From: a bacterium
Lineage (GTDB): Bacteria; Hydrothermota; Tepidihabitantia; SM23-42
Assembly (NCBI GenBank): GCA_029933705.1
Contig: JAOZNQ010000001.1
Coordinates: forward strand, 1-54,992
Length of the DNA stretch: 54,992 nt
Direction of reading: 5' to 3'
Shown: in pieces, positions 13,962 through 45,845 of the stretch
Position numbering within the stretch: the stretch's first letter is position 1
Layout of the letters: every line of letters starts with the position of its first letter
The notes under the pieces: model-generated
Database searches by the model: none
Seen by the model: the letters and a program-made list of their open reading frames with translations, nothing else
What the model was told of the DNA's origin: nothing
Made by a program: the position numbers and the translations under genes

Positions 13962-14014
13962 GGGTTTTCTGCATCCAGAACAGAGATTAATTTGAAGTAT
14001 CAAAAAATGGATTG

Positions 14015-24091: not shown

Positions 24092-25059
24092 TAAATATAA
24101 CCCTGTTCCTGATACCATTTGATCGTCTTTTTCAGGCCTTTTTCTAATGAATATTCAGGTTTGAAATTGAGTTCCGTGACTGCGCGGCTGTCGTTGCAGA
24201 CCCAGTAGCGTGCCGAGATTTCTCTCACCTTGTCGCGGGATATGAGCCTTCTCTTTTCCGGCAGAAAGATGTCATTGAAGAGGCCGGCCAGAAGGCTAAG
24301 CGATTTTGGGATGTAGATTCTAATATTTTTCTTCTTCAAAATCTTGGAGATTTCATCGAACAATTCAGAGAATTTGTAAATATTTCCATCATTGATAAAA
24401 TATATGCGGTTGTGAAAACTGTCCGATTCAATTATCTTTAATATAACCCGGACGAGATCGGCAACATAGATAAGATTGATATACTTTTCACCCCAGCCCG
24501 GAATTAAACCGAGGCCGAGGTTCAGAAGTTTTATATATCTCAGGATATCTAAATCATAAGGTCCATATACGGAAACTGGCCGCAGTATTGTATACTGAAG
24601 ACCACTCTGGATTACTGCCTGCTCAGCCAGATATTTTGTCCGGCCATAAAAGGAGATAGGTCGTGGTGGTGTTGACTCATCCAGTGGTCTCTTGTTTGGA
24701 GCCGGGCCACAGGCAGCTTGGGAACTGAGAAAGAGGATTTTTTTGACGGCCTTTTTCTTCATTGCAGAAGTGATGTTTATTGTACCCAGGGTATTTGTAT
24801 TATAGAACTCAAAATAGTTTTTGCCCATAGTTCGAGCCGCACAGTGTATTACGATTTCGATATCGTCAAGAGCATCAGGAAGGCCATAATTTTGTTCCAA
24901 ATCTCCGAGAACGATTTCTGCATTCTCCAGGTTCTTTAACAAACCGATATTTGAGGTGGGTCGCACCAGAAACCGAGCTTCTTTTGAACGAACAATTAGC
25001 GGTGCAAGATTTTTGCCGATGAATCCGGTTGCTCCGGTAATAAGAATCTTAGGCGCCAT
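24091..25059 (-). CDS. NAD-dependent epimerase/dehydratase (extended SDR)
   Basis: ITGATGFIGKNL (Rossmann fold) and YGRTK (YxxxK). Confidence 0.8.
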   Translation of the reverse strand: MAPKILITGATGFIGKNLAPLIVRSKEARFLVRPTSNIGLLKNLENAEIVLGDLEQNYGLPDALDDIEIVIHCAARTMGKNYFEFYNTNTLGTINITSAMKKKAVKKILFLSSQAACGPAPNKRPLDESTPPRPISFYGRTKYLAEQAVIQSGLQYTILRPVSVYGPYDLDILRYIKLLNLGLGLIPGWGEKYINLIYVADLVRVILKIIESDSFHNRIYFINDGNIYKFSELFDEISKILKKKNIRIYIPKSLSLLAGLFNDIFLPEKRRLISRDKVREISARYWVCNDSRAVTELNFKPEYSLEKGLKKTIKWYQEQGYI

Positions 25060-27890: not shown

Positions 27891-27892
27891 AG

Positions 27893-28159
27893 TCAGAAGG
27901 TGATAAAATTTTTATGAATTTTTGGAACAAAGTTTTTCAGCCTTATATGGAAGCGAACAGCTTTATCCGTCCTCAATTTTTTTATATCAATCGAGTTTAA
28001 TTTCTGTAAGTCGATTTTTTCGGTATCGATGGACTGGAGCTGTTCAAATGTCTTTATGATTTCTATAAGCTGTTGGATAAATTTTTCTGAAGGTGGTGCT
28101 AATCGGGATAAATCTGCAATTTCTTCAATCGTTTTTCTGCTCAGGCTATTTCTGGACAT
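27893..28159 (-). CDS. gatC: Asp-tRNA(Asn)/Glu-tRNA(Gln) amidotransferase subunit C
   Basis: 88 aa. Position immediately upstream of gatA-gatB. IEEIADLSRL...LQSIDT pattern. Confidence 0.75.
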   Translation of the reverse strand: MSRNSLSRKTIEEIADLSRLAPPSEKFIQQLIEIIKTFEQLQSIDTEKIDLQKLNSIDIKKLRTDKAVRFHIRLKNFVPKIHKNFITF

Positions 28160-28177
28160 CAGTATAATAGATGTTTT

Positions 28178-29188
28178 TTAGAAGCGATATGAGAATGAGA
28201 ATTTACGGTTTGTTGTTTCAAATTCATAGATTGCCTGGTCAATTCCAACATCTATAGAAAAACCACCAGCCTTAATTCCACCCCCAAAGGTGAAACCGAT
28301 CCTGGCTCCTTCGGTATCGCGGAAATAACCACCGCGCAGACAGATAAAGTTGTAATACTCTACTTCTAAACCAACCGCCTTCCATGCTGTCTGGAATTCG
28401 TATCTTAAATTTTCAAAGAAAGTACTATCTTCACTGGCAAACATTCCAACCAGAATCTTAGTGACATCTGTAGTCATACATACCCGTAATATCCGTGAAT
28501 TTATCGGTTCAAGTTTCATCCCCAATCTCAGGGTATAGGGCAGGGGATCCGAGGAGCCACTCTCGGTATAACTGATATTGGGTCCGAAATTCTGCAGGGC
28601 AAGGGCGAGGGATATGAAGCTATAGGGTTTATAGAGCAGGCCTCCATCAAATGCCCAGGTGATACCGGTGCCGCCCTTTTCGATTCCCAGACCCGGCATC
28701 CTTTTGAATACCCAATCCGGGACAAGAAATGAGTAGATGAATTTCCAGCCTATACCCATACCCAGCTGGTTAGTCAATTTGAATCCGTAGTTTAGCCCGG
28801 TCGCAATATCAAAGGTGATATATTCTCCGATGTATTGCCCGGTTTCGTCGATCACCTCGGTGGTGCCGGTGGTGAGATAGATGATGTCGAGCCCTAAGGC
28901 GCCCATCTTCATCGGTTTCACCACACCTGCATATTCATAGTACATACCGGAGTGGAGTGCAGGCAACCAGTTTGCATGCTGAAGCGTAACGATGGTCTGG
29001 TCGAGAAAGGCCAGACCCGCCTGATTATAGTAACAGGCAGTTGCGTCATCCGCAATTGAAGAAAATGCTCCACTCAGTGCGGTTGCCCTGGCTCCGGGCC
29101 AGATCAGCAAAAATACTGCTCCGGGTCGACGACCTGCACCTCCGAGTAGCCCGCAGAACAGGCTAAGAATTAAAAAAACCTTGCGCAT
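28178..29188 (-). CDS. PorV/PorQ-family-like outer-membrane beta-barrel (T9SS-associated)
   Basis: Signal peptide MRKVFLILSLFCGLLGG. GARATALSGAFSSIADDATACYYNQAGLAFL resembles the PorV/PorQ N-terminal signature. Alternating beta-strand pattern ending in ...KFSFSYRF (terminal aromatic residue). The start is taken as ATG 29188, behind GGAGG. Confidence 0.6.
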   Translation of the reverse strand: MRKVFLILSLFCGLLGGAGRRPGAVFLLIWPGARATALSGAFSSIADDATACYYNQAGLAFLDQTIVTLQHANWLPALHSGMYYEYAGVVKPMKMGALGLDIIYLTTGTTEVIDETGQYIGEYITFDIATGLNYGFKLTNQLGMGIGWKFIYSFLVPDWVFKRMPGLGIEKGGTGITWAFDGGLLYKPYSFISLALALQNFGPNISYTESGSSDPLPYTLRLGMKLEPINSRILRVCMTTDVTKILVGMFASEDSTFFENLRYEFQTAWKAVGLEVEYYNFICLRGGYFRDTEGARIGFTFGGGIKAGGFSIDVGIDQAIYEFETTNRKFSFSYRF

Positions 29189-29206
29189 CAAAAACCTCCA
29201 CATTTT

Positions 29207-29234
29207 AGTATAATAAAAATATGGTAAATGTCAA
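29207..29234 (-). promoter_or_regulatory. Sigma70-type promoter for the PorV-like gene and downstream gatCAB
   Basis: Minus strand reads TTGACA (29234-29229), a 16-nt spacer, TATACT (29212-29207). ATG 29203 lies 3 nt downstream. ATG 29188, with GGAGG, lies 18 nt downstream. Confidence 0.65.
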
Positions 29235-29256
29235 GGGGAATACATATTTGATAAAG

Positions 29257-30474
29257 TTACCTTCCTTCGTTCTCCTTTGCACGCTGAAGATACTCATTTG
29301 ATTTGGCATCATTGCCGAGCTGGGCATAAAGATAAGCCAGATTAGTCAAGACTTCCACACGGTTTGGGTCCACTGGCAACATCCTGTTCTCATAGATTTC
29401 AATAGCCCGTTTATAGAAACCGAGTTGTGTATAGCAGACTGCAAGATAAAACCAGGCATCCTGGTCATCCGGATTTATCTTCGTAAGCTCTTCTAAGTAT
29501 TCCCGTGCTTTCTGATATTCCTTAAATTTGATGAGTATCTCCGAAGCGAAGAAGAGTGCATCAATGTCATCGGGTTTGAATCGTAAACAATTTTCTAAAT
29601 TTTGCAGGGCGGTGCTGTTTTCTTTCAAGTTATAATACAACATCCCTATGTAGTAATAGGTGTGGGCAAGATCAGTTGCTGCCCTGGATAGTCCAAGCAT
29701 AACCTCATTGTGTGCTGCCAATCCATCTGTAAGTTTCAACTCTTTTTTAAACAACTCGTCCAATTCCTGGAGCTGTTTATTGAACCATAATCTTAATACC
29801 TTTCGGGTGAGTTTGTCATCCACATCAATTTTGTTTTGGAATAAGACCTGCAGTGTTCGTTTGTATTTCGGTCTGTAATATTTCATAGCATTGATGAAAT
29901 ATTTTAAACAGCTGTCAAATGCCCCGGCTTCAAATAGTGACTTTCCGATAAGAAAATTTATATCGGGATTCTTGGGGTCCCTGCTTAAAATATCAAGGTA
30001 TTCCCTGTTTGCCTCTTCAATTCGACCGAGTTTAAAGAGGATGGCACCTTTTAGTATGCTACTATTTTTATCGCAATAATCAAAATAAGCAGTATATTTA
30101 ATATCATTCAATGCCTCCTCGTATTTATGCTTTTTAAAGTAATCGAGGGCGGAGAAATAGAATGCCTGATGATAGTATTTTTCGCCTCCGCCTCTTTTCC
30201 TGATCCAGTCAAGGGTGTGCAGGGAATCTTTTGAAAATGCACCTTTCAGTGCCTTGACTGCAGCATGCCAGTTGCTGTATGAAATTTCACAGGCGCTGAG
30301 AATTGCATAAAGCTCAAAATGGGTATCACCCTTTTTAATTCCTTCAAGGCAGGCCTTCTTTGCCCTTTTATAATCCTGTTCATTAAAGAAGGCGATCCTT
30401 GCAGTATTTAGATATACTGAGGCATTCATAAATGTAATACATACGATAGAGAGCAAAATTAATGACCGACGCAT
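29257..30474 (-). CDS. TPR-repeat protein with signal peptide
   Basis: 405 aa. MRRSLILLSIVCITFMNASV, then multiple 34-aa TPR units (e.g. AWFYLAVCYTQLGFYKRAIEIYENRMLPVDPN). SD AAAGGAGG lies upstream. Confidence 0.6.
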   Translation of the reverse strand: MRRSLILLSIVCITFMNASVYLNTARIAFFNEQDYKRAKKACLEGIKKGDTHFELYAILSACEISYSNWHAAVKALKGAFSKDSLHTLDWIRKRGGGEKYYHQAFYFSALDYFKKHKYEEALNDIKYTAYFDYCDKNSSILKGAILFKLGRIEEANREYLDILSRDPKNPDINFLIGKSLFEAGAFDSCLKYFINAMKYYRPKYKRTLQVLFQNKIDVDDKLTRKVLRLWFNKQLQELDELFKKELKLTDGLAAHNEVMLGLSRAATDLAHTYYYIGMLYYNLKENSTALQNLENCLRFKPDDIDALFFASEILIKFKEYQKAREYLEELTKINPDDQDAWFYLAVCYTQLGFYKRAIEIYENRMLPVDPNRVEVLTNLAYLYAQLGNDAKSNEYLQRAKENEGR

Positions 30475-30506
30475 AAAGATCCTCCTTTCAATATTTTAAC
30501 TTTATT

Positions 30507-31811
30507 TTAATAGGTTTCGAGCAATTGAAATTCATTCACTGCATTACGTTCTTTTCCACTCAACATATCCTTCACTCTCAAAACAATCAAATAGGAACCC
30601 GGTTTTAGGTCCATTGGATGGTATTTTGCAGCAAGATAAGCAACCGATGATGGGCCGATATGGTCCTCACTCATTATATCGACAATCTCCTTGCGCATCT
30701 TCTGTTTATTATAGATTTCATATATCGTCTTTATATGGTGCTCACCACCTTCTGTTTTGAGATTATAAACTTCAGTATATAGGTAGAAAGGCCTATGGAT
30801 AGGAAAGATCGAATTCGTCAGTGGAATGACCCTTCCTACCGGTTTTTCAAACTTTTGGTGGGTAAAGGCGTCATCAATAACCATTGCGTAGATGAGATCA
30901 CTGATTTCCTTTGCATCATCCTGATAATCGATTAGATTGACTGTCTCGACTTTTGTCTTTGAACATCCATCTCTCAAATTGGTTATTGTAATCTCCAATC
31001 TATATTTATCAGGCGAGAGCCATAAATTGGTTTCATCAAAGAAGGTTCCTTGTTCAGCTTGCCTCGGTTTCAAAAAGTCGGATTTACTTTGGATCAAACT
31101 GTCATTCAGGTCAAGAACTTTTATTTGACGCCAAAAGATTAACGAGGTAGTATCTTCAAGCATAACTGTAATATAAATCTCCAACCGCGTTAAATTTCTT
31201 CTCTGACGAAATCTCCCAATTGTAACATCAAAATCCATTTTTCCAAAGGATTTCTTCGGGAGTGTGGTGTCGATTCCGATCTCTTCCAAATACGGGATTT
31301 TTAAACCCTCACCAAATTCAGATACGGCAATGAGTTTATATGCCCTCACGAATCTGACAAAGTCGAACATCCTGCCATAATTATCATAGGTCCAGATCTC
31401 AGCGGGTTTAACACTTTCTTTTATCTTAAAGGCAATCTTCTTTTGTGGTATAATCTCTTCCCTGACAGTAGGCGCACCATATTTCACATAAATCGGGATT
31501 CGATCATCACTGAGTGGCGCATATTTACCAAATTTCCGGTATGCATAATCGATTCTTTTCTCAAATTCGCGGCGCGCAGACTGGGGTTTACTCGACCAAA
31601 AATTTTCATAATATCGGGCTCGTTCAGTCGCTGATTCAAGGTTCAGATATTCGATGGCGGCCAATGAATCAAGCCCTCTCAACCCAAGGAATATCTTCTG
31701 CTCTTTCTCAAGAAGTCGATAATAGCGCGATGCAAGGATGTTTGTAACCCTGCATAGGGTTAATACTATGATGGCGAAAAAAAGGAGTAGTTTAAAAGTC
31801 CTGCGGTTCAT
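30507..31811 (-). CDS. GWxTD-like domain protein (paralog 2), secreted or membrane-anchored
   Basis: The start is taken as ATG 31811 (MNRRTFKLLLFFAIIVLTL), which overlaps the upstream stop (TAATG). DDRIPIYVKYGAPTVREEI...PAEIWTY resembles the GWxTD-domain core (..G..Y...G.P......E.W.Y), although the GWxTD tetrad itself is degenerate. Confidence 0.5.
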   Translation of the reverse strand: MNRRTFKLLLFFAIIVLTLCRVTNILASRYYRLLEKEQKIFLGLRGLDSLAAIEYLNLESATERARYYENFWSSKPQSARREFEKRIDYAYRKFGKYAPLSDDRIPIYVKYGAPTVREEIIPQKKIAFKIKESVKPAEIWTYDNYGRMFDFVRFVRAYKLIAVSEFGEGLKIPYLEEIGIDTTLPKKSFGKMDFDVTIGRFRQRRNLTRLEIYITVMLEDTTSLIFWRQIKVLDLNDSLIQSKSDFLKPRQAEQGTFFDETNLWLSPDKYRLEITITNLRDGCSKTKVETVNLIDYQDDAKEISDLIYAMVIDDAFTHQKFEKPVGRVIPLTNSIFPIHRPFYLYTEVYNLKTEGGEHHIKTIYEIYNKQKMRKEIVDIMSEDHIGPSSVAYLAAKYHPMDLKPGSYLIVLRVKDMLSGKERNAVNEFQLLETY

Positions 31812-33088
31812 TAGTCCTCCTGTAATATGTCCTCCTCTTCTTCGGACTTCTGCCTGAAATAGGTTCCTGGAGCAATCCGCGTCAACCAGGGCCACTTTCT
31901 GATATCCTCTGGTTTATAGTAGCCAAGTTCAATTATATGAAAAAGTTCATTTACCCTCAAAACAGCAATCAATTCTGGATCTCCATCATTATGCACATCA
32001 CAGAATAAAACATCTTTCCCCTGAGAATAGTAGTGCCACAATTCCAGTGGTTTTCCCCACCTGTTCATCGGGATATCATCGATACATTCTGGAGGTCCAT
32101 ATTTTATGTAGTATCTTCCGCGCTTGGAATTCCTGCCTTTCATCCGTGTGGTGGAAAATTTTTCATCGGCTTCAAGAAGTCTCTTCACAAACTCCTGGTA
32201 ATCGTGTTCGGTCCAGAATTTTTTCAGATATATCTCTTTCTCCTGTTGACTGAGAACCTTGAATCTTTTGAATTCTTTCTGGCTTACCAGAAATTGTATC
32301 TCAGAACTGAAAGGCATATTCGAGATATCAACTTTTAGAGGTCTAATGGTGAACAGCCTTTTATGCTGAAATCTGCTTGCTGAAACCGAATCGTAAATTT
32401 CAACCAGGAAGGTATATTCTCCTCCGGTAAGGCCGTTAAGGGGTATGGAGGTGGTATCTACAATTTGATACCCACACTTTAAATTTCGTAATTTCCTCTC
32501 GTAGATAAGATTGCCTGAATTACCGATTATCTTATATCGTGAATCATAATACAGACTATCAGCCCGTAATCCATAAATTTCAATATAAGAAAACAATGTG
32601 TCATTCAATTCAAAATTTAAATCGATTACGGGTATAAACGGAAGGCCACGGTAGCTGAAGATTTCCATATTGCATCTCTTGCCAATGATGAGATCACTCG
32701 TGTATACTTGTCCGGTGTCCGGAATAATTTCAATCTGTCCTTTATACTCTTTCGAAAAGTCCTTGGTATCTATGAGCAGTCGATAATGGAATAATCCGGG
32801 ATAAAGAGAAATCGGAATATAATCCACAAAATGAAAATCTTTCTGAACCGACTTCAGAGGTCTGAAGAGACCTTTGGTGCCGGCAATATGTGCCGAATCG
32901 TTATTTTGGTAATTGTAAATTTCCAACTGGTATTTATATTTCTCAAAAAGAGAATCTGCAATGACCCGGGTATCAGACAAAGAGAATTCTCTTGAACTGA
33001 TATGATACCAGAGCTCAACATAGCTATTATTAAAACGATATACCTCAACATGTTGCTCTGCTATCGACAGCAGGATGGCAAGAAACAT
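31811..33088 (-). CDS. GWxTD-like domain protein (paralog 1)
   Basis: KGRNSKRGRYYIKYGPPECIDDIPMNRWGKPLELWHYY resembles the GWxTD-domain core. The start is moved to ATG 33088 (MFLAILLSIAEQ) because a promoter occupies the track-called extension (to 33172). Confidence 0.5.
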   Translation of the reverse strand: MFLAILLSIAEQHVEVYRFNNSYVELWYHISSREFSLSDTRVIADSLFEKYKYQLEIYNYQNNDSAHIAGTKGLFRPLKSVQKDFHFVDYIPISLYPGLFHYRLLIDTKDFSKEYKGQIEIIPDTGQVYTSDLIIGKRCNMEIFSYRGLPFIPVIDLNFELNDTLFSYIEIYGLRADSLYYDSRYKIIGNSGNLIYERKLRNLKCGYQIVDTTSIPLNGLTGGEYTFLVEIYDSVSASRFQHKRLFTIRPLKVDISNMPFSSEIQFLVSQKEFKRFKVLSQQEKEIYLKKFWTEHDYQEFVKRLLEADEKFSTTRMKGRNSKRGRYYIKYGPPECIDDIPMNRWGKPLELWHYYSQGKDVLFCDVHNDGDPELIAVLRVNELFHIIELGYYKPEDIRKWPWLTRIAPGTYFRQKSEEEEDILQED

Positions 33089-33096
33089 ATGGTAAA

Positions 33097-33124
33097 AGTA
33101 TATATATAATTTACTAAAAATCAA
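33097..33124 (-). promoter_or_regulatory. Sigma70-type promoter for the GWxTD-TPR gene set, leaderless geometry
   Basis: Minus strand reads TTGATT (33124-33119), a 16-nt spacer, TATACT (33102-33097), 8 nt (tttaccat), then ATG at 33088. Confidence 0.6.
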
Positions 33125-33161
33125 TAATGGTAAACAGATCCGATATTCTGAACTTAAGTAT

Positions 33162-33189
33162 TTGACAATCAAAAAATCAGGATTATAAT
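33162..33189 (+). promoter_or_regulatory. Consensus sigma70 promoter for the phosphohexomutase gene, leaderless geometry
   Basis: TTGACA (33162-33167), a 16-nt spacer, TATAAT (33184-33189), 5 nt (cggat), then ATG at 33195. Confidence 0.75.
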
Positions 33190-35838: not shown

Positions 35839-35899
35839 ATTTTTACTTTAATAAAAATAGTATCATACTGATTATCTATGCACCTATTACAATTAACCC

Positions 35900-35927
35900 T
35901 TGATTTTTTTAGAATTATGTATATTAT
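35900..35927 (+). promoter_or_regulatory. Sigma70-type promoter for alr, leaderless geometry
   Basis: TTGATT (35900-35905), a 16-nt spacer, TATTAT (35922-35927), 7 nt, then ATG at 35935. Confidence 0.55.
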
Positions 35928-35934
35928 TATTTTA

Positions 35935-37104
35935 ATGAACCGTTCTGAAGGAAGGGTCTGGGCTGAGATTTATTTAGACCGACTTATCAAGAATTACTAT
36001 CAGATCAAAAAGAAAGTAGGTAAGGCACGGATAATGGCGGCGATTAAGGCCGATGCCTATGGGCATGGGGCAAGGGAGGTCGGCCGCACCCTCGAGGCCG
36101 AAGGTATTGAGATGTTTGGTGTGGCAAGCATTGAGGAAGGAGTTGAATTACGAGAGGGAGGTATCCAGACCCCGATTCTTATTCTGAGTCCGATTCTCTA
36201 TTCCCAGATTGATACACTACTTGAATATGACCTGATGCCTACAATATCTGAATTGAGTTTTTATAACCACCTGGAACGAAAGTTGAGGAAACTGAGGCGG
36301 CCGATAAAGATCCATATCGAGGTGGATACCGGTATGACACGGACCGGTTTTTCCTATAACAAAATCAAGCAGGCGATTCATAAAATCGGGAAATCCCGTT
36401 TTATCAAAATTGAAGGTTTCTTCTCCCATTTTCCGGTTGCGGATGCAGATGGCTCTTTCACCAAGAAACAGATTGAGGATTTTAAGGGATTGTTGAAGCA
36501 GATGCATAACCTACGGGTTCGACCCCGGTATGTGCATCTGGCCAACTCAGCGGGAATCTTTAAATATCCCAGGGCCTATTTTAATCTCGTGCGTCCAGGA
36601 ATTGCCCTCTATGGTTTACGTCCCAGTCCTTCTATCGATTTTGGTAAGAATTTTGCCCCGGTTCTTGCATTGAAATCAAGGGTGGTGAATGTTCGTCAGG
36701 TTGGTCCACAAACTCCAATCAGTTATGGCCATCGTTTTATTACCAAGAGGCGGAGTCGGATTGCTACAGTAAGTGTGGGATATGGTGATGGTTATCCCAG
36801 GGTTTTATCCAATCGGGGTGAGGTACTCATCCGGGGTACACGGGCAAGGATTGTAGGAACTGTATGTATGGATTTGATTATGATCGATGTTACCCATATT
36901 CATGGGGTGAGGGTTGGGGATATTGTTACCCTGATTGGCCAGGACGGTAAGGATGAGATCAGCGCTGAAGAATGTGCCCGATGGGCGAATACCATAGTCT
37001 ACGAAATTACTTCAGGAATTGGTCCCCGGGTTGCAAGGGTTTACAAGATAAAGGGGCGCACGATTGAAATCAGAAATTTACTGGGAAGGTGGCGAAATGC
37101 TTGA
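35935..37104 (+). CDS. alr: Alanine racemase
   Basis: AAIKADAYGHG (PLP lysine), SHFPVAD and VSVGYGDGYPR. The start is moved from 35878 to ATG 35935 (MNRSEGRVWAEI). Confidence 0.9.
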   Translation: MNRSEGRVWAEIYLDRLIKNYYQIKKKVGKARIMAAIKADAYGHGAREVGRTLEAEGIEMFGVASIEEGVELREGGIQTPILILSPILYSQIDTLLEYDLMPTISELSFYNHLERKLRKLRRPIKIHIEVDTGMTRTGFSYNKIKQAIHKIGKSRFIKIEGFFSHFPVADADGSFTKKQIEDFKGLLKQMHNLRVRPRYVHLANSAGIFKYPRAYFNLVRPGIALYGLRPSPSIDFGKNFAPVLALKSRVVNVRQVGPQTPISYGHRFITKRRSRIATVSVGYGDGYPRVLSNRGEVLIRGTRARIVGTVCMDLIMIDVTHIHGVRVGDIVTLIGQDGKDEISAEECARWANTIVYEITSGIGPRVARVYKIKGRTIEIRNLLGRWRNA

Positions 37105-37190
37105 TAACAATGATAATGGTTTTATACCAATAGATTCCTCCGGCCGGCTGTTTGGGAAGGGAATAATAGATTTTTTATAAGGAGGCAGAT

Positions 37191-38243
37191 ATGAAGAAAT
37201 TATTGATTCTATTGATGTTTGTCTCCATTTTTGCACAGGAGACAACACATGTGGTAAAGAAGGGCGATACCCTCTGGGATATTGCCGGAATATACTATCA
37301 GAATCCATTTCTCTGGCCCTATATCTGGCGTGCCAATTTGACCAAAATCAATGATCCTCACTGGATATATCCAGACCAGGAATTTGTTATTCCACCTGCA
37401 CCTGAGGAGGCAATCGGTGAGGTTCCTGCACCACCGACGCCAATGCCGGCACCAACTCCAGCTCCAGAATCGGTTGCGGTTCCTCCTGAAGAGGTTGTGA
37501 TGCCAACACCACCACCGCCGAGTAAGCCTGCTGCAGAGGTTATATCTGTGGTCAGTCCGGAAGAGAGGGTTTTCAGTGAAGAAATGATCCATCGGGCTGG
37601 ATTCATTCTTGAAGACGACCTTCCCTACTGGGGTAAGATCATTGGAACCGAACCTGCAGCCACCAAGCACATAACAACTTTCAGGAAGATCTATATTGAT
37701 CGTGCTACTGATGTCAAGGCTGGTGATATTCTGACAATCTATCGGCCGGGTCATGTGGTCACGCATCCCAAGACCGGACGAAGGTTGGGTAAGGAGATAA
37801 TTGTTCTGGGTAAGGCAGAGATTGAGGAAGTAGGTCCTGACGGCTCACGATGTAAGGTGATAGCATCTTATGATATTATCAAAAAGGGTGATTTTGTAAC
37901 CCCTTATGAGCCGATACTTGCTCCAGAAAAGGTAACTCTCATTCCAACGGAAAAGGATATTGAAGGTTATGTTGTTGAGGTGAAGAACAAAGACATTCTT
38001 ACACCATCCAATATCTTTGCGTATGTTGATCAGGGTGAGGACGCGGGGATTGCGGTCGGAGATATCTTTGATGTCTATGAGAAACGTGAAGTTGAAGGCA
38101 AGAAGATGCCCGATTTCAATATCGCCCGGATCCAAATTGTAAGTGTCTTTAAGAACGCTTCGATTGGATTGTTGCTTGTGCAACGGGAAACATCCGTGGT
38201 GAAGAGAGGTATGCATTGCCGCCTCTCGATGGAGGTGAGGTGA
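37191..38243 (+). CDS. Secreted LysM-domain protein with Pro-rich linker and two beta-rich C-terminal repeats
   Basis: SD AAGGAGG. Signal peptide MKKLLILLMFVSIFAQ. LysM domain HVVKKGDTLWDIAGIYYQNPFLWPYIW...IYPDQEFVIP. Linker PAPPTPMPAPTPAPE...PTPPPPSKP. Two GD-x-hydrophobic barrel-like units (VKAGDILTIYRPG..., IAVGDIFDVYEKR...). Confidence 0.7.
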   Translation: MKKLLILLMFVSIFAQETTHVVKKGDTLWDIAGIYYQNPFLWPYIWRANLTKINDPHWIYPDQEFVIPPAPEEAIGEVPAPPTPMPAPTPAPESVAVPPEEVVMPTPPPPSKPAAEVISVVSPEERVFSEEMIHRAGFILEDDLPYWGKIIGTEPAATKHITTFRKIYIDRATDVKAGDILTIYRPGHVVTHPKTGRRLGKEIIVLGKAEIEEVGPDGSRCKVIASYDIIKKGDFVTPYEPILAPEKVTLIPTEKDIEGYVVEVKNKDILTPSNIFAYVDQGEDAGIAVGDIFDVYEKREVEGKKMPDFNIARIQIVSVFKNASIGLLLVQRETSVVKRGMHCRLSMEVR

Positions 38244-38704
38244 AAGAGAAGGAAGTTCTAAGTCAGGTTTACCTGTTCCGCGAATTGACGCCCAGTGAGA
38301 TGGATATTCTCATTTCGATCTCCAAGGAAAAACGGATTAAAAAGAATGAGGTGATTTTTAAAGAGGGTGATATCGGTGATGCATTCTATCTGATTGTTTC
38401 GGGTAGTGTTCGGATTTCAACGATTGTGCCCGGGGTTGGGGAGGAGGCATTGACGATTCTGCGTGAAGGTGAATACTTCGGTGAGATGGCATTGATCGAC
38501 GATGCTCCACGTTCCGCCTCGGCCATCGCCAATGACGATACAATTCTGCTCTCTATCGGTAAAGAGGATTTCCGAAAACTCCTGGCCCAGGATACCAAGA
38601 TTGCCTACAAGTTGCTCTGGGTATTCACCAAGACACTTTCTGCACGATTGCGCAAGACCGATGAACAGCTGAAGAGCATCTTCTCGATAGCAAAGACATT
38701 CTGA
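38240..38704 (+). CDS. Stand-alone cyclic-nucleotide-binding (CAP effector) domain protein, no DNA-binding domain
   Basis: FRELTPSEMDIL..., GDAFYLIVSGSV and FGEMALIDDAPRSASAIA (FGE...R-S/T-A phosphate-binding cassette). GTG 38240 lies behind GGAGG (38231-38235) and overlaps the LysM-gene stop (GTGA). The protein ends about 20 aa after the cNMP domain. Confidence 0.8.
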   Translation: MKEKEVLSQVYLFRELTPSEMDILISISKEKRIKKNEVIFKEGDIGDAFYLIVSGSVRISTIVPGVGEEALTILREGEYFGEMALIDDAPRSASAIANDDTILLSIGKEDFRKLLAQDTKIAYKLLWVFTKTLSARLRKTDEQLKSIFSIAKTF

Positions 38705-38775
38705 TTCTAAGGTAGACACCGAGGAAGAGGAAAATTTAATGGACATTAGTCTTAAGTCTTAGAGTTGGAAATGTA

Positions 38776-39099
38776 ATGGCAAAGGTTCTGATACTTGTTT
38801 TGGCTCTTGCCCTGATTGTGGAAAGGATTACTCAGAAGGTGCTCTTTCTATTACCGATTTCAGAAAAGAAGGTCTGGGCCTGGATTGTGAGTACCGGGCT
38901 GGGGTTACTTATCAGTTTTTCCTTTTCGTTCGGGATTATCCGGGAACTCGGACTCGGAACCGGTTATCGTGTTGCCTGCTGGGTGGACTATTTTATCACA
39001 GGTTTACTGATCTCTTCGGGAAGCGAACCGGTGCATTCGATTGTTGAGGCCTTGGCAATGAAAAAGAATGAGTTGAAAAAGAAGGCGAAAGGTGTTTGA
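38776..39099 (+). CDS. Small integral membrane protein (about 3 TM)
   Basis: 107 aa. Hydrophobic segments VLILVLALALIV, WAWIVSTGLGLLISFSFSFGII and WVDYFITGLLISS, with a basic tail. Overlaps the next gene by 8 nt. Confidence 0.4.
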   Translation: MAKVLILVLALALIVERITQKVLFLLPISEKKVWAWIVSTGLGLLISFSFSFGIIRELGLGTGYRVACWVDYFITGLLISSGSEPVHSIVEALAMKKNELKKKAKGV

Positions 39100-42000
39100 T
39101 TTCTTCGGGGCACGGGATCCAGAAAAGGCCTTGCAAAAAGCACAGGAATATTTGAAGGAAGGTAAGGCCGAACCGGCAATCAAGGTTCTGGAGCAGAACC
39201 TTACTGATGGAGAGGAGTCTTTTGAAAATTATCAACTTCTTGCCCGACTCTATTATGAAGCAGAACAAAGGGAACAGGCGGTGCGTCTGCTGCAGCAGCT
39301 TCGTAAGATTGCACCATCGCGGGACGATGAGATCGTTTCCCTCATTTCTGAACTGTTTTACCGTCATCCCTCGATAGATAGTGGCGATTTCTTTATTCAT
39401 CTGTCAATCGCAAAAGAACGTTATGAAGAGATTGAGAAGATCCTGCGCGCCCTGAGTGACAGGGAAGTAAAGTTACTAATCACCCGTTATGATAAACTGA
39501 ATCAGAATATCAATTCCAAACAGGTGATTTCAAAAAGAGATTTTGAAAATTTGATAGTCCTCTCTGCTTTGAGATTTTTTACCAATGAGGGAGAGGTGGG
39601 TTTGAAGGTGATCGAACCGATGATCAGCGTCGATGTCTATGCCCCAAAGGTTCTGAAATGGGCGCGCACAATATCAAGAAGTCGTTTTAATGACTCTTAT
39701 TCTGCACTGTTGCTTCTCAAAGCCCAGCTGGCCAATGGTGAATATGATGCCGGGGTGGCTCAGGCCCAGCGGATATTTGAGAAATTTCCTGACTTCATCG
39801 ATCCTTTGATTGATACTATAATAAAGACAAAGCTTCCCAAGGATTATGAAGTAAAATTTTCTGAATTCCTTACGGAGTTGTATATTAAAAAAGGTGACTT
39901 CGCTACATCCATTGAACAGCTGAAGAGAATTCTCGCTGAAGACCCGAGCAAGATTGATGATGTAATCAAGGGGTTAAGGGAATTACAGCGCGTAAACCCT
40001 AAGGACCTTAAAATTCTTTACACCTTGGGTGATACATATCTTGATGCAGGTCGGGTTTCCCTGGCGATAAACGAGTTTGATAAAATACTTGAAATCGCTC
40101 CGCAAGATTATGATAAGATCATCGACCGATATAAGAAGGCATTTGAGAAAGAGCCGAATAACCCTTTGGTAATTCAGGGTATTGTCAATACCTATTTGAA
40201 AAAAGAAGCAGTTGATGAAGCGGTGGCGGTTATTGAGAGGGCATATAAGGGTGACCCTGGATTGCTCGATGAATATATATTGAACCTCAATGCGATTCTG
40301 GAGAAGAAGTTGGATAACACCAAGGCGCTCTATCTACTGGGGCTCTGCTATGGCCATAAGGGTGACAAGGAGCGTGCCCTGGTGATTTTTCAAGACCTGA
40401 TGGACCAGGGAGAATACCGCTATGTGGATGAAGCCACCAAGGAGATTCTCGATAAGGTTGAGGACTTTGATTATATAAATCTCAGGGCACGAAGTTTGTG
40501 CATGCTCAAAAGATATGATGAGGCATTCGGATTGATAAAACCATACCTTGATGAACCGGCTGAGAAACTCCTTATATTCTTTTCGACACTTGATATGATT
40601 ATCAATAAACAACCTGCACTTCTGGATAAAGTTTTACCTATCTATAAGAGATATAAAGAAGAGGACCCCTTCATCGGTGAGCTGGCTATGGCACGTGCCC
40701 AAGCATTTGCGGGTAAATATAATGAGGCGGTAAAAGGGTTTGAACGGTGCCTTGCCGAAGAGGAACAGAAGGATGTGGCAAAGCGGGCCTTGATTGAAGT
40801 GATTAAGGAGCGGCCTGACGCGGTGCCCTTATTATTGACTGCGGCCAGGATCTTTATGAAAGAAGGCGAACTTGAGATTGCCACACAGTTTTTCAAAACC
40901 GCCCAGATGGTCGATCCCAAGGCGTTCTTTGAGATCATCGATGAATTTTATGATGCACTCAAGGCGTTTCCCAAGGATCGTGAGGTCAGGACCGTTTTGA
41001 TTGAAACATTCTTCCAGCGCAAATTATGGGATCGGGTGATTGAAGAGGCAAATCGGGCGATTGAGGTTTTTGGTAGGAATGAACAGTATTTTAATCTGAA
41101 ACTGGGTCAGGCACTGGTGGAGAGCGGAAATTTGAGTGATGCGGTGAGGCCTTTGATGCTTTCACTCAACGGTGAAGAGGATTATTCACAGGAGGTGATT
41201 GATTATCTTGATAAGATCCTACAGATTGACAAAAGCAATGTTCCGGCCCATTTTGCCCGTGGTCGTGCCCTGAGCCGTGCCCATCGTCTGGATGAGGCGG
41301 TTGATGAGTATCTTTTGACCGTCAGAATCCTCCCTGCCCGGGCCGAGTATGTACTCGATGAACTGAAGGCCCTCTCTTCAAAGGCGATGGCAAATCCCAA
41401 AATTATCTTTGCCCTCGGTAGTGTCGAGGTGGTGCTCAAGAGGTATGATGATGCAATCAAACACCTTTCCCAGGCCTGTGAACTGGACAGCTCCTTGGTG
41501 AAGCGGGTGATCCCTCTATTTGAAAAGTTGTCCCGTGAAACATCGAGTCCACTGCTCGATTTTTCTCTGGCAAAGATATATCAGATTGCAGGCTTGAAGA
41601 ATTCCGCGGTCAAATATTATATGAAGGCACAGGCCGGGAATAAGGCATATCGTGAGCCCGCGATCTCCGAGATGAAGAAGATCTGTACCGCCAATCCCAA
41701 GGATGTTGAATCCCGTATGGGCTTGGCTGAACTCTATTTTGACTATAACAATCTTGAGGATACATCCACCCTGGTGAGTGAGGTCTATGAACTGGACCGA
41801 ACAAAGGCCAACTGGGTCAAGAAGTTTGTTGCCAAGATTCTGCAGAAGAATCCCCGTCATATCCCATCTTATTATTTTCTCGCCCACATATTTCTCAGTG
41901 AGAAGAGCTATAAAAAATGTGTTGAGGTCTATAAGAAACTCCTTGAGATGGTTCCCACTGAACTGCCCAAGGTGCTCAATATTCTGGGTAAATATGAAGA

Positions 42001-42817
42001 TGCAGATCCGGAAATTCTCTTTTTCCTCGGTCTGCTCCACCAGGAAAGTGGCGATGTCAAAAGGTCGGTTGAATTATTCAACAAACTCTATTCCCGAGAC
42101 CCCGGCTTTGGCTCAGCCATAACCTATCAAATTAAAGAGATTTTAAAGAAGAATGCGGATATGGGTGAAGCCTACTTACTGGCAAGCAAGATATTTGCGA
42201 TGGAGAAGGAGTATGAAAGGGCGATTGAGTCGATTCACCGCGCCCAGGAATTGATGCCTGAAAAAGAGGATATAATATTGAAAGAAGGGCAACTGTACTA
42301 CAAAATGGGTGAGCCTGAGAAGGCAATAAAGCTTTATACTGAACTATTAAATAGAACAAAGGACCGTAAGAAGATATATCGTTTGATCAGAAACACACGC
42401 AACAATTATTTGAAGGAAAAACTGGAGATGATAAAAGGCGACGACGATGAGGCGCGTCTCAAACGGGCCGACATCTATCTCCAGCTGAATAAACTTGATG
42501 AGGCAGGAAGAGAAATCCAATTTATCCCGAAAGATAATCTCCTGATGAAGGCACAGACAGTTCTCCGCGCCCGATTATATCTCAAACGGAATCGTCCAAT
42601 TGATGCACTTGAAATTATCAGAACCCTACCAGTAGATAAAGAGACCGCCTTGGTTTATGCAGATATCTATGAGGCGATGGGTTCGTATGGCATCGCTGCA
42701 GGGGTGTTGAGGCAGGCGGGTGTTGAAGGTGTTGAAGCGAGGATCGAGAACTACGAAAAACTTGCCTTGATGAGAAGATCGGCAAAGGGAAAATATTTCA
42801 TTGAAGGGAGGAGTTGA
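39092..42817 (+). CDS. Very large (1241-aa) all-TPR/helical-repeat cytoplasmic protein
   Basis: GTG start. No signal peptide. TPR-like 34-aa units run throughout (e.g. ALYLLGLCYGHKGDKERALVIFQDLM, AHFARGRALSRAHRLDEAVDEYLLTV). Confidence 0.6.
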   Translation: MFDFFGARDPEKALQKAQEYLKEGKAEPAIKVLEQNLTDGEESFENYQLLARLYYEAEQREQAVRLLQQLRKIAPSRDDEIVSLISELFYRHPSIDSGDFFIHLSIAKERYEEIEKILRALSDREVKLLITRYDKLNQNINSKQVISKRDFENLIVLSALRFFTNEGEVGLKVIEPMISVDVYAPKVLKWARTISRSRFNDSYSALLLLKAQLANGEYDAGVAQAQRIFEKFPDFIDPLIDTIIKTKLPKDYEVKFSEFLTELYIKKGDFATSIEQLKRILAEDPSKIDDVIKGLRELQRVNPKDLKILYTLGDTYLDAGRVSLAINEFDKILEIAPQDYDKIIDRYKKAFEKEPNNPLVIQGIVNTYLKKEAVDEAVAVIERAYKGDPGLLDEYILNLNAILEKKLDNTKALYLLGLCYGHKGDKERALVIFQDLMDQGEYRYVDEATKEILDKVEDFDYINLRARSLCMLKRYDEAFGLIKPYLDEPAEKLLIFFSTLDMIINKQPALLDKVLPIYKRYKEEDPFIGELAMARAQAFAGKYNEAVKGFERCLAEEEQKDVAKRALIEVIKERPDAVPLLLTAARIFMKEGELEIATQFFKTAQMVDPKAFFEIIDEFYDALKAFPKDREVRTVLIETFFQRKLWDRVIEEANRAIEVFGRNEQYFNLKLGQALVESGNLSDAVRPLMLSLNGEEDYSQEVIDYLDKILQIDKSNVPAHFARGRALSRAHRLDEAVDEYLLTVRILPARAEYVLDELKALSSKAMANPKIIFALGSVEVVLKRYDDAIKHLSQACELDSSLVKRVIPLFEKLSRETSSPLLDFSLAKIYQIAGLKNSAVKYYMKAQAGNKAYREPAISEMKKICTANPKDVESRMGLAELYFDYNNLEDTSTLVSEVYELDRTKANWVKKFVAKILQKNPRHIPSYYFLAHIFLSEKSYKKCVEVYKKLLEMVPTELPKVLNILGKYEDADPEILFFLGLLHQESGDVKRSVELFNKLYSRDPGFGSAITYQIKEILKKNADMGEAYLLASKIFAMEKEYERAIESIHRAQELMPEKEDIILKEGQLYYKMGEPEKAIKLYTELLNRTKDRKKIYRLIRNTRNNYLKEKLEMIKGDDDEARLKRADIYLQLNKLDEAGREIQFIPKDNLLMKAQTVLRARLYLKRNRPIDALEIIRTLPVDKETALVYADIYEAMGSYGIAAGVLRQAGVEGVEARIENYEKLALMRRSAKGKYFIEGRS

Positions 42818-45441
42818 TGAAGTGTCCTTTTCTGAGCAAAAGGAAGGATATCCTTGACAAGAGTGGCAAAAAGATAGGAGAGGAGATTACCCTCCAGGAA
42901 TGCGTGAAGAATGAGTGTATGGTTTATGACGGTGCGACAAAGTTATGTTCTTTACTTTCATCGAATATGAAGATTGGGGTGCTTATTGATGACTTCAAGA
43001 AGGGTATTGAGACGCTTAAAGAAGAGGTCTTCCAGCGCACCGAGGCGGTGACATCTGGGTTTTCTTCTGCAATTCAAACATTGCAGCAGACCTTAATCGG
43101 AAGATTCGATATTCTCCAGAAACAGAATGAAGTTATGGTGTTGGGGTTTGATAAATTACAGGAGACATTCAACAACAAATTTGAGGAGTTGAAACTTAAC
43201 TTCAGCGATTTCGCATCTAAGATAGATTCTCTGCACAGTAGCCTCATTGAGACCCTTTCCGATTATAACGGCCAGCTCATCAATCAGCTGAAGGAATTAT
43301 CCGAGGTGGTGAATGATAAAGGTGAAGGTTTGAAAGCCAATATTCAATCGGTTCAGGAAAAGATCCTTGAGGCGGACACGACGAATGCAAAGTTATTGGG
43401 AGAAATAAAAGAATTGAATGATAGATATACAACTAAATTGACTGAAATAGGAGAGATGATTGACCGTCAGGCCGAGGAGATGGAATCATTCGTAAGGGCC
43501 CTCAAGGATACAGCGGTAGAATTGAAGAATACAGACAGCCAATTTATCGATGAACTCAGAGAGTTTAAAGAGTCTATTTTGAATAAACTCACTCAGGGGA
43601 GTGAATTCACCCAGGCCCTGCAGGAAGGTCTCTCTTCCCAGCTCGAACTCCTCAAGGAGAACATAGCAAAATTGACCACCACCAATCAGGTGGGGATGGA
43701 GGCACTAGGTGGAGAGCTCAGTAGGATTAATCAACAGGGCAATGAGCTGATGGAGAGACTTCAAACTCTCGATAGTATATCTTCGGGTTTAGGTAACCTG
43801 GAAAACTCATTCCGCTCTGAACTTGCACAATTGAGGCAGGAGGGTACGAACTTCATCAGCTCTCTCTCCAACAAATTTGATGAACTCGCCCGTATCTTCT
43901 CCGAGGCGATAAAACCGGGTATTGATAGTATGACTGAATTGATAAAAGAGGAAATCAGTGGAGTTAAATCAGGAAGCTTGAATGCACTCCAGTCAATTTC
44001 GACAAAATTTGATGAACTTGCTGGTGTATTCTCAGAGGCGATCCAACCTGGAGTTGAGAAGATAAATGAACTCATTAAGACTGAGCTCAGCGCAGTGAGG
44101 ACCGAATCGATTGAGGCGATTAATGGACTTTCCCGGAAGGTTGATGAACTCAGCGGGACAATGAGCGATTCGATAAAGAGTGACCGTGAAAACATTCAGG
44201 AACTGGCAGAAAAATTTGCCGGTATCACCGAGACGATAAAGAATGAGATCAATGAATTTCGAAACAGTATTGCAACAAAATTTGACGGCCTGAACAATCT
44301 TCTGGCAGAGTCATCAAAAATCCAGCAGCAGGGTGCTGATATGATTGTGGCTCGTTTCGATTCTGTCGGTGATAACATTAAAGAAGAGGTGAAGGGGTTA
44401 CGGAGTGATACTACTGCAGTCTGGAGTGATTTTCGGAGTGAGATTGGTGGTTATCTTGATGGGGTGAAGAACGAGATAGTAAATTTGAAGAGCGATCAGA
44501 TCGCCTCACTCAATAATGTTCAGGGAGAACTGTCGAAATTGAAAGAACTCTTTACTCAATCTTCGGAGAGCCTTTCCACAATGAGTGATATGATGAAGAA
44601 CTTGAATAAGAATTATCTCGAGTCATTGAGCAAGATCGCCGGACTCGCAGAAGGGATGCGTAAGGGTGTAGAGAAGGTGGGTGATGGTATGCACGATTCG
44701 GTGAAGGACCTGATTGCAGAGATGAAAAAGGAAGTTGGTGCGCTGGAGAAACAATATGAGAAGACATTTGGTGATATTGCGCAGCTTGCTGAAAAATTTG
44801 AAGGGTTGAACAAGCGAATCAGAGAGATGACCCAGGAGGTTGAACATGAATTTAAAGAGTCATTTGAACGTCAGAGCAAACTCTCGGATTATACAAAGAC
44901 GATTTTGGAAAACATCAAGTCCTATTTTGAGAAGGAAGAGCAACGCTATAAGGACGAGCAGAAGAATCGCCAGAAGAAAGAAGGGCTTGATCACTTTGAC
45001 CGTGCAACACTCTATTATTACCGGGGCAATTATGAGCTTGCCCTGAATGAAGTCAATAAGGCCTTAGAGATTGAAAAGACCGCTGAATACCTCAATCTCA
45101 AAGGGCTTATCCTTGCTGAGCTGGGTAAGTTTGATGAGTCCAAGGAGACATATACTGAAGCCCTGAAACTGGAACCCAATCTCGCAGAGATACATAACAA
45201 TCTGGGTCTGCTCTACATTAAAATGAAGAAATTCGACGATGCGGTTGTCTCATTCCGGGATGCGACAAAGAAGAATATCCATTATGCCCTTGCCTATGTG
45301 AATCTCGGGAAGGCCCTGATTGAGCTGGAAAAATTTGATGAGGCGCTCAAGGCATATAATAAGGCATTGGAGATAGACCCGGCCAATAAAGAGGCATTGG
45401 AGGCGATCCAGTTATATAAAGAAGGAAAATTCAGTGAATAA
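42817..45441 (+). CDS. 874-aa protein (875 aa counted from the track's TTG 42814): N-terminal 4-Cys cluster, about 650 aa of segmented coiled coil with 44-aa repeats, and C-terminal TPR repeats
   Basis: SD GGGAGGAG. ATG 42817 overlaps the upstream TGA by 1 nt. N-terminus MKCPFL...LQECVKNECMVYDGATKLC. C-terminal TPRs (ATLYYYRGNYELALNEVNKALEI..., AYVNLGKALIELEKFDEALKAYNKALEIDP). Confidence 0.6.
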   Translation: MKCPFLSKRKDILDKSGKKIGEEITLQECVKNECMVYDGATKLCSLLSSNMKIGVLIDDFKKGIETLKEEVFQRTEAVTSGFSSAIQTLQQTLIGRFDILQKQNEVMVLGFDKLQETFNNKFEELKLNFSDFASKIDSLHSSLIETLSDYNGQLINQLKELSEVVNDKGEGLKANIQSVQEKILEADTTNAKLLGEIKELNDRYTTKLTEIGEMIDRQAEEMESFVRALKDTAVELKNTDSQFIDELREFKESILNKLTQGSEFTQALQEGLSSQLELLKENIAKLTTTNQVGMEALGGELSRINQQGNELMERLQTLDSISSGLGNLENSFRSELAQLRQEGTNFISSLSNKFDELARIFSEAIKPGIDSMTELIKEEISGVKSGSLNALQSISTKFDELAGVFSEAIQPGVEKINELIKTELSAVRTESIEAINGLSRKVDELSGTMSDSIKSDRENIQELAEKFAGITETIKNEINEFRNSIATKFDGLNNLLAESSKIQQQGADMIVARFDSVGDNIKEEVKGLRSDTTAVWSDFRSEIGGYLDGVKNEIVNLKSDQIASLNNVQGELSKLKELFTQSSESLSTMSDMMKNLNKNYLESLSKIAGLAEGMRKGVEKVGDGMHDSVKDLIAEMKKEVGALEKQYEKTFGDIAQLAEKFEGLNKRIREMTQEVEHEFKESFERQSKLSDYTKTILENIKSYFEKEEQRYKDEQKNRQKKEGLDHFDRATLYYYRGNYELALNEVNKALEIEKTAEYLNLKGLILAELGKFDESKETYTEALKLEPNLAEIHNNLGLLYIKMKKFDDAVVSFRDATKKNIHYALAYVNLGKALIELEKFDEALKAYNKALEIDPANKEALEAIQLYKEGKFSE
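43861..44124 (+). repeat. Two clear tandem in-frame 132-nt (44-aa) repeat units, with degenerate further units to about 44400
   Basis: Unit 1 (43861-43992) is SLSNKFDELARIFSEAIKPGIDSMTELIKEEISGVKSGSLNALQ. Unit 2 (43993-44124) is SISTKFDELAGVFSEAIQPGVEKINELIKTELSAVRTESIEAIN. My manual alignment gives 24 of 44 identical residues. Confidence 0.8.
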
Positions 45442-45455
45442 TACAGGAGAAAAGG

Positions 45456-45845
45456 ATGGATATTATTGAACGTTTGAAAAAGAAGAAGAAGGGCGATTCG
45501 GTCTTTGATACACTCATAAAGAAGAAGGAGAAGAAACCGGAGAAAGATGAGAAGGTGGAACGGCCGAGTGATATTGAGGTTCGGGAACTGCCTGATACCG
45601 CACGGGCATCGATACCAGAACAGTCTGAGGAGATAATGGATATCACCCAGCTGGAGGCAAAGCCGGTAAGGGAGTTTCGCACTGAAGGGATGCACGAGTT
45701 TGACATCGAGAGCCTTGGAACATCATCGGATGCGGCATTGAAGGCCGAATATAAGTCCCGTATCAATAATCTGATTGATCACAACAATATTGATGGCGCG
45801 ATGGCCCTTCTGCAGGAGTTGAAGAAAAAACTGGCGGAAAAATAG
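45456..45845 (+). CDS. Small, highly charged protein (Lys-rich N-terminus, acidic centre)
   Basis: 129 aa. SD AGGAGAAAAGG lies directly upstream of the ATG, 14 nt after the previous stop. MDIIERLKKKKKGDSVFDTLIKKKEKKPEKDEK... Confidence 0.45.
   Translation: MDIIERLKKKKKGDSVFDTLIKKKEKKPEKDEKVERPSDIEVRELPDTARASIPEQSEEIMDITQLEAKPVREFRTEGMHEFDIESLGTSSDAALKAEYKSRINNLIDHNNIDGAMALLQELKKKLAEK

Follow-up and report, generated by a model that had tools for sequence, protein, structure and literature searches.

What might a cell do with six closely packed genes whose products carry interaction domains and no enzyme, and do such genes belong to any system already described? The question is raised by a cluster at positions 37191-45845 of a 54,992-nucleotide (nt) stretch of bacterial DNA (the window; contig JAOZNQ010000001.1, assembly GCA_029933705.1), whose first product we assign to the TsaP family of pilus-associated proteins and which we tentatively read as an accessory module of an envelope machine in WOR-3 bacteria. 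Open reading frame (ORF) calls place six genes on the + strand here, encoding in order a TsaP-like (LysM) protein, a cyclic-nucleotide-binding (CNB) protein, a small membrane protein of 107 amino acids (aa), a tetratricopeptide repeat (TPR) protein, a Cys4/coiled-coil/TPR (CC) protein and a small charged protein of 129 aa. In gene order, the junctions read -4, +71, -8, -1 and +14 nt, exactly the overlaps of 4, 8 and 1 nt and the gaps of 71 and 14 nt that a first-pass annotation of this DNA had reported. At the first junction (GTGA) the GTG start of the CNB gene overlaps the stop codon of the TsaP-like gene, the 107-aa and TPR genes overlap by 8 nt, and at the TPR/CC junction (TGATG) the ATG of the CC gene has one base in common with the TPR stop codon; GGAGG-type ribosome-binding sites lie ahead of five of the six starts. 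The same annotation saw a set of interaction domains without enzyme or ATPase, and searches of the six proteins against Pfam and NCBIfam, which returned neither kind of domain, bear this out.

The TsaP-like gene (37191-38243, +) encodes 350 aa. Its hydrophobic N-terminus, MKKLLILLMFVSIFA|QE, with A15-Q16-E17 invariant among orthologs, reads as a predicted signal peptide (aa 1-16, cleavage near IFA|QE), and is followed by a LysM domain (aa 20-68; 37248-37394, +; Pfam LysM E=8e-9), a Pro-rich linker and tandem FlgT-C-like beta-roll domains, CI and CII (aa ~125-350; 37563-38240, +), for which the Pfam FlgT_C match is sub-threshold. A profile of 45 orthologs compared with the PDB matched TsaP of Myxococcus xanthus (3jc8_Ta, E=1e-31) and of Pseudomonas aeruginosa (6ve2_O, E=2e-20), the latter over nearly the full length (positions 19-321 against 30-332), while the other PDB matches were confined to the LysM domain. 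The AlphaFold2 (AF2) model is all-beta, with a predicted local distance difference test score (pLDDT) >90 over most of aa 130-350, and Foldseek returned 6ve2_O as its sole match below 1e-3 (E=8e-6, prob 1.0, template-modelling score (TM) 0.62, 230 columns); the next match, to MreC (E=1.3e-3, TM 0.14-0.22), was not significant. Both hallmarks of the TsaP family, an export signal with a LysM domain and tandem C-terminal FlgT-C-like domains after a linker, are present, and on these profile and model matches we place the gene 1 product in the TsaP family, with a predicted secretin association. The failure of the first-pass annotation to match the genes to a characterised system thus holds for the set as a whole and not for gene 1, and the kind of result that it had named as speaking against an undescribed system, hits to well-characterised families, was obtained in part, for this one protein.

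TsaP is a peptidoglycan-binding ring around the secretin of the type IVa pilus (T4aP); it has the layout LysM-linker-CI-CII, and in Pseudomonas CI and CII form a heptameric belt around the PilQ secretin (10.1101/2020.05.29.123786). When TsaP is over-expressed, cyclic-di-GMP signalling is set off in P. aeruginosa. Gene 1 shares with the known proteins (6ve2_O, 3jc8) the signal peptide, the LysM domain, the flexible linker and the two FlgT-C-like beta-rolls, and, like tsaP of model organisms, it lies outside a pil operon. By contrast, identity to P. aeruginosa TsaP over CI/CII is only ~19%, and gene 1 is translationally coupled to a CNB gene and always followed by a TPR/coiled-coil module. A literature search that combined TsaP with cyclic-nucleotide-binding proteins found nothing relevant, and no description of such an arrangement was found. 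Public gene calls make the LysM protein 342 aa long; the 350-aa start, which follows a strong ribosome-binding site and gives a complete signal peptide, is supported by the comparison of orthologs.

The CNB gene (38240-38704, +; GTG start) encodes 154 aa, not the 155 aa first given, and matches the full-length PF00027 cNMP_binding model at E=3e-26. Its product consists of a CNB beta-roll and a C-terminal helix, with no output domain. The phosphate-binding cassette reads FGEMAL..PRSAS, FGEMALIDDAPRSAS can be aligned to the PKG and PKA-R cassettes, and the PDB matches are canonical CNB domains (PKG, PKA-R, CRP); the beta-roll and the G-E ... R-[ST]-A cassette that mark PF00027 are both in place, and a nucleotide ligand is predicted. 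The PF00027 match and the alignment with PKG and PKA-R agree with the earlier view of a stand-alone domain with an intact cassette. CRP/Vfr-type cyclic AMP (cAMP) receptors have the CNB fold and the phosphate-binding cassette in common with this protein but differ from it in carrying a DNA-binding or other output domain. Because the protein has no such domain and is exactly 154 aa long in 40/40 orthologs, any output must run via protein-protein contact. A CRP/FNR-type regulator was considered and rejected, since the C-terminal helix-turn-helix DNA-binding domain is not present and the CRP/FNR matches in NCBIfam cover only the N-terminal CNB part, far below cut-off. For annotation this means that the label 'CRP/FNR family transcriptional regulator', which public records from several sources give to this protein, is on its domain content misleading. 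Public calls also begin the gene at a downstream ATG, giving a product shortened to 134 aa; ortholog comparison and the overlap of the start with the upstream stop codon support the 154-aa start.

If output runs through protein contact, the nearest candidate partners are the two large proteins encoded downstream. The first, the TPR protein (39092-42817, +; 1241 aa, GTG start), is a cytoplasmic all-alpha solenoid without signal peptide in which Pfam TPR families span aa 7-1181; conservation peaks at aa 551-800 (40742-41491), and the protein ends in an invariant tail, ...YF.EGR. Its 102 homologues measure 1240-1244 aa and are 49-81% identical, those with a named source all coming from candidate division WOR-3. 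Profile search of the PDB found generic TPRs and no specific relative, and the NCBIfam matches (PrsT, LapB, PilW, YbgF, BatC, BepA and others) were TPR-only and far below cut-offs. A Tol-Pal, Bam, Bat or LapB component could be ruled out, as family cut-offs were unmet and adjacent partner genes absent. In size and make-up the protein calls to mind Myxococcus SgmX, a large cytoplasmic TPR regulator of pili that is ~1000-1250 aa long, nearly all TPR, and proposed to sit at the T4aP base; unlike SgmX-type regulators, the WOR-3 TPR protein forms a lineage-restricted family.

The second large protein, the CC protein (42817-45441, +; 874 aa), begins with a domain (42817-42966, +) that carries four Cys residues invariant in the ortholog alignment (C3, C29, C34 and C44). 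The N-terminal ~100 aa are conserved, and a search of 1.84 billion representative proteins brought up only 12 relatives of this domain; its AF2 model, at pLDDT 54, is too poor to use, and a PDB profile search with the Cys4 domain found nothing specific. Judged by these searches, the Cys4 domain is, like the TPR protein, lineage-restricted. The middle of the CC protein is acidic (pI 4.75; 4.9 for the whole protein), indel-rich and helical, with 7/11/18-residue periodicity and an apolipoprotein-like region that gives a sub-threshold Pfam Apolipoprotein match. Neither self-BLAST nor TRF found clean internal repeats; a degenerate ~44-47-aa motif recurs. The protein ends in four to five TPRs (~44950-45408, +; Pfam TPR_1/2/8). 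Across orthologs its length ranges from 484 to 878 aa, both ends being conserved (the last ~170 aa are the TPRs) and the middle variable. Signal peptides and transmembrane segments were found in none of the TPR, CC and CNB proteins, and by its sequence the TsaP-like protein is the only exported product of the cluster.

An acidic region followed by TPRs is also a trait of the FimV/HubP hubs, whose acidic cytoplasmic region and C-terminal TPR domain are described in two accounts (PMC12918733; 10.1101/116954). The connection between FimV, cAMP and T4aP is documented, the Pseudomonas hub linking secretin assembly with cAMP production and Vfr (10.1101/116954). The LysM anchor, membrane segment, acidic variable region and C-terminal TPR of FimV, HubP and TspA are all found in the cluster as well. 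Here, however, several polypeptides divide these elements between them, LysM comes in a TsaP-type protein with CI/CII, not every locus has the membrane protein, and the CC protein, unlike the hubs, begins with a Cys4 domain. Membership of the CC protein in FimV/HubP was ruled out, because it has no LysM domain, no transmembrane segment and no TIGR03504 match (NCBIfam, E<=0.01). The relation, seen at the level of architecture, is one of analogy and not of homology.

The two remaining genes are smaller and less constant. The 107-aa protein (38776-39099, +) has three hydrophobic segments, read by eye, a basic C-terminal tail and the invariant motifs ER.T.K and GSEP.HS, and it matched nothing in Pfam, NCBIfam or the PDB. 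Its description as a protein with three transmembrane segments is upheld in so far as three hydrophobic segments can be read in the sequence; as a fixed part of the set it fails, since the gene, found in 22-24 of about 41 genome loci (product always 107-108 aa, 8-nt overlap), is absent in about 40% of them, which make up a Stahlbacteria-like clade. No remnant was detected in the genomes without the gene. The 129-aa protein (45456-45845, +) combines a Lys-rich N-terminal helix (MDIIE.LKKKKK) with an invariant EFRTEGMHEF motif, and its C-terminus (aa 94-121) matches a single hairpin of the pentatricopeptide repeat (PPR)/TPR kind. It has no Pfam match at E<0.01 by itself; 16 of 24 orthologs weakly match EAD11, an effector-associated adaptor domain of Pfam (best E=0.007), and these matches probably reflect the C-terminal TPR/PPR-like hairpin. 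A separate clade lacks the 129-aa gene; the genes that come next after CC there encode a secreted 250-aa protein and an ECF sigma/anti-sigma pair. Permissive Pfam scans with all orthologs of the three unassigned pieces gave scattered weak matches only.

The resemblance to EAD11 is one of three matches that might point to an anti-phage or conflict system, either a Pycsar-like cyclic-nucleotide type or one based on TPR/EAD domains; in PADLOC, the CNB protein matches the CNB domains of Pycsar effectors (E=3e-14) and the CC helical region matches ZorA tails. All of these are domain-level or compositional likenesses, however, and no cyclase, effector, NTPase or nuclease accompanies them. Pycsar membership in particular was ruled out: the CNB part alone matches, and there is neither a cyclase nor a TIR/transmembrane effector nor a mobile locus. 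The cluster is instead single-copy, at a fixed core-genome position, vertically inherited and under strong purifying selection, the opposite of a defence island, and we give a defensive role almost no credence.

To what extent the genes belong together can be judged from their distribution. Two separate scans were made, one with a single genome per GTDB species and one of metagenomes, and loci were rebuilt by tblastn and ORF reconstruction. The species scan yielded 40 loci, all from metagenome-assembled genomes labelled WOR-3, Ca. Stahlbacteria or 'TA06 DG_78', and the metagenome scan ~26 further loci with the same order and overlaps; together, identical gene order and overlaps recur in ~60 independent WOR-3 ("Ca. 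Stahlbacteria") loci. Every locus with enough sequence shows the order alr > LysM > cNMP > (107 aa) > TPR > CC > (129 aa), and the overlaps are nearly as constant (LysM>cNMP 4 nt, 34/37 loci; 107-aa>TPR 8 nt, 22/22; TPR>CC 1 nt, 37/39). Gene order alone is weak evidence here, because synteny often extends to purA on the upstream side and to PPDK on the downstream side; strong evidence comes from the start/stop overlaps and their conservation. Four genes (TsaP-like, CNB, TPR and CC) are universal, whereas the 107-aa gene occurs in ~60% and the 129-aa gene in ~70% of loci. From this pattern of overlaps and gene content we conclude that the cluster consists of four core genes and two accessory ones and falls into two modules, each translationally coupled, module 1 being TsaP-like > CNB and module 2 (107-aa) > TPR > CC (> 129-aa). 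The idea of a six-gene operon conserved across neighbourhoods thus survives in its order and overlaps and gives way in its membership.

Sequence divergence sets these genes apart from one another. Across 40 genomes mean pairwise identity is 87.8% for the cNMP protein, compared with 66.8% for the TsaP-like protein, 66.1% for alr, 61.7% for the 107-aa protein, 56.7% for TPR, 53.1% for CC and 51.1% for the 129-aa protein; by this measure the CNB gene is by far the most conserved of the neighbourhood and slower-evolving than housekeeping enzymes. Homologues of the TPR, LysM and CNB proteins were, among the matches listed, WOR-3 orthologs only. A distant lineage (L043), in which TPR is 37%, CC 38-45% and the small protein 27% identical, keeps the trio TPR > CC > small with the 1-nt TPR>CC overlap, on contigs that end before the upstream genes; a metagenome scan with an alignment into which this distant ortholog had been taken disclosed no further distant lineage. 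In the 'complete' chromosome CP070795.1 (L036) the cNMP gene is broken by a run of N at 9416-9892 (masked sequence or an assembly gap), with unrelated genes upstream of it; that alr and the LysM gene seem to be lacking there is probably an artefact of masking or assembly.

The modules stand 24-140 nt apart (57-140 nt in loci without the 107-aa gene, 24-110 nt before that gene where it is present), and this spacer raises the question of whether they form one unit at all. The TsaP and CNB pair and the TPR/coiled-coil module could be two independent neighbours whose adjacency was inherited from the WOR-3 ancestor: overlaps occur within modules only, unrelated housekeeping genes hold their positions too, the distant lineage shows module 2 alone, and the spacer holds a recurring motif, possibly a promoter. 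This motif, GGTTTGGAAACTGGAAA-like, was observed between the cNMP and TPR genes in loci without the 107-aa gene (spacers of 57-140 nt; L004, L005, L007-L009, L022, L024, L026, L027, L029 and L033), and from its recurrence it could be an internal promoter or regulatory site. Against independence, the modules adjoin in all ~60 loci though the TPR protein has diverged to 44-57% identity, at divergences where the 3' neighbours already differ between loci (MFS/ArsR genes in some loci only, one clade with an ECF sigma block). The modules also share one strand and short spacers, with no terminator-like site found between them, and an output-less CNB protein needs a partner, for which the scaffold proteins are the sole nearby candidates. 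We regard two unconnected units as quite improbable.

Our preferred reading of the cluster, to which we incline without holding it firmly, is that of an accessory module, specific to WOR-3, of an envelope machine built on a secretin, with the type IVa pilus as the likeliest machine. The TPR and CC proteins would together make up a large hub or scaffold in the cytoplasm, located where a TsaP-ringed machine stands or at its base; the CNB protein, having no output domain, would act by binding this scaffold in a cAMP- or cGMP-dependent way; and such binding would tie the assembly, positioning or activity of the machine to the second messenger. The ratio of the TsaP-like to the CNB protein might be set by their co-translation. 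The CC protein is hub-like in its acidic, variable-length middle and conserved C-terminal TPRs, Vfr offers a known case of pilus biogenesis under cyclic-nucleotide control, and the proposed logic resembles the Pseudomonas FimV-FimL-CyaB-cAMP axis, and large TPR pilus regulators such as Myxococcus SgmX, by analogy, the proteins not being homologous. Pili are present on strain sy37, the only cultured WOR-3 strain and a diderm thin rod (PMC12285271); apart from this, WOR-3 literature and supplements contained no statement on pil genes.

Several observations weigh against this reading of the cluster as a pilus accessory. The 55-kb window holds no pilus, secretin or cyclase genes, and no PilB/T-type ATPase, secretin or prepilin motifs were found in 1.3 Mb of flanks of 73 loci. 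The modules are joined by adjacency over the 24-140-nt spacer and not by overlap, and the gene order could in part be inherited synteny, given the behaviour of purA and PPDK. In model organisms pili function without TsaP, which is hard to square with a strongly conserved core-genome cluster. TPR, coiled-coil and CNB domains are generic, and the likeness to FimV is architectural only, the FimV C-terminal model giving no match. In genomes without the 107-aa protein, moreover, the cytoplasmic proteins have no membrane anchor, and their contact with any envelope machine is purely inferred. The last point also bears on the proposal in the first-pass annotation of a second-messenger-gated, envelope-spanning scaffold. 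What stands of it is an uncharacterised, enzyme-free, cNMP-linked scaffold set; that it spans the envelope does not follow, because only the TsaP-like protein is exported and the membrane protein is absent from about 40% of loci. Since the TPR, CC and CNB proteins have neither signal peptide nor transmembrane segment, a connection to the envelope would need a machine encoded elsewhere, for example a pilus apparatus.

The genes upstream of the cluster lead to a different explanation. On the same strand lie glmM, purA and alr, the last encoding alanine racemase (35878-37104, +) directly 5' of the TsaP-like gene; the gap is 1-120 nt in essentially all loci with enough upstream sequence, and we treat alr as context whose membership in the cluster is not proven. 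Because no promoter-like site was found between alr and the TsaP-like gene (37105-37190), transcription possibly starts further upstream. The best promoter-like site in the 15-kb region, a perfect sigma-70 consensus (TTGACA-16 nt-TATAAT, 33162-33189, +), lies directly 5' of glmM. As judged from these sites, the transcription unit may start upstream of the cluster, and glmM-purA-alr and the cluster may share transcripts.

With alr, which supplies D-Ala for peptidoglycan, always the immediate upstream gene and glmM upstream in the window, the cluster could encode a peptidoglycan or cell-pole/division scaffold unrelated to pili. The TsaP-like protein would then be a LysM-anchored periplasmic ring or a marker of septal or polar peptidoglycan, and the TPR and CC proteins a cytoskeleton-like shape, division or polarity scaffold under cNMP control. 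A universal single-copy position in the core genome fits cell-biology essentials better than pilus accessories, and LysM domains of gene 1's kind are reported in the literature to target septal peptidoglycan. Variable-length coiled coils are typical of bacterial cytoskeletal and polarity proteins. The second, weak Foldseek match of the TsaP-like model is to a cell-shape protein, MreC, but that match falls short of significance, and those relatives of gene 1 that experiments have characterised are all TsaP proteins bound to a secretin. The cluster, furthermore, contains no division or elongasome genes, and the adjacency of alr may be plain synteny, like that of purA and PPDK. On balance we find a pilus-independent wall or pole scaffold doubtful, while giving it serious weight beside the pilus reading.

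Elsewhere in the window, an MFS transporter, an ArsR regulator and PPDK lie downstream of the cluster on the opposite strand, and the remaining genes are housekeeping genes and genes for type IX secretion. Scattered cell-wall genes, none adjoining the cluster, occur on the - strand at 973-1671, 2925-4043 and 13012-13974 (a YggS-like alanine-racemase-fold protein, a SpoIID-domain protein and an M23 peptidase). A release factor 2 ORF with PCRF and RF-1 domains (10222-11260, -) is N-terminally short, and the canonical prfB +1 frameshift motif CTTTGAC is found just upstream of it (11251-11257); from the motif, the split looks like the usual programmed frameshift divided by mechanical ORF calling. 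The type IX secretion-related block (17050-33172, -) comprises a 2014-aa S8 protease with a Por_Secre_tail sorting domain (17050-23094, -), a PorV-like protein (28178-29203, -), a 405-aa TPR protein (29257-30474, -) and two Pfam-less proteins of ~450 aa (30507-33172, -) in which GWxTD-like 'KYG.P...E.W.Y' motifs can be seen by eye.

WOR-3 is a widespread, almost uncultured phylum, and the cluster is one of its invariant lineage-specific gene sets, for which the TsaP assignment of gene 1 provides a first functional handle. That a CNB receptor evolves more slowly than housekeeping enzymes implies, as far as sequence comparison can tell, a central second-messenger pathway in WOR-3. The arrangement also bears on the role of TsaP itself, which is dispensable for pili in model species yet elicits second-messenger signalling when over-expressed: it suggests that TsaP-type rings can be genetically hard-wired to cytoplasmic signalling and scaffold proteins. 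A bolder view, which we think unlikely, is that the cluster encodes an undescribed phylum-specific machine in which the CNB receptor, its most conserved subunit, would gate the assembly of a giant cytoplasmic scaffold of TPRs and variable-length coiled coil, tied via the envelope to a peptidoglycan-anchored TsaP-type ring. If true, bacteria would have a polar organiser, or a receptor complex for a second messenger, of a new kind, and TsaP-family proteins would have been recruited beyond decorating the pilus secretin.

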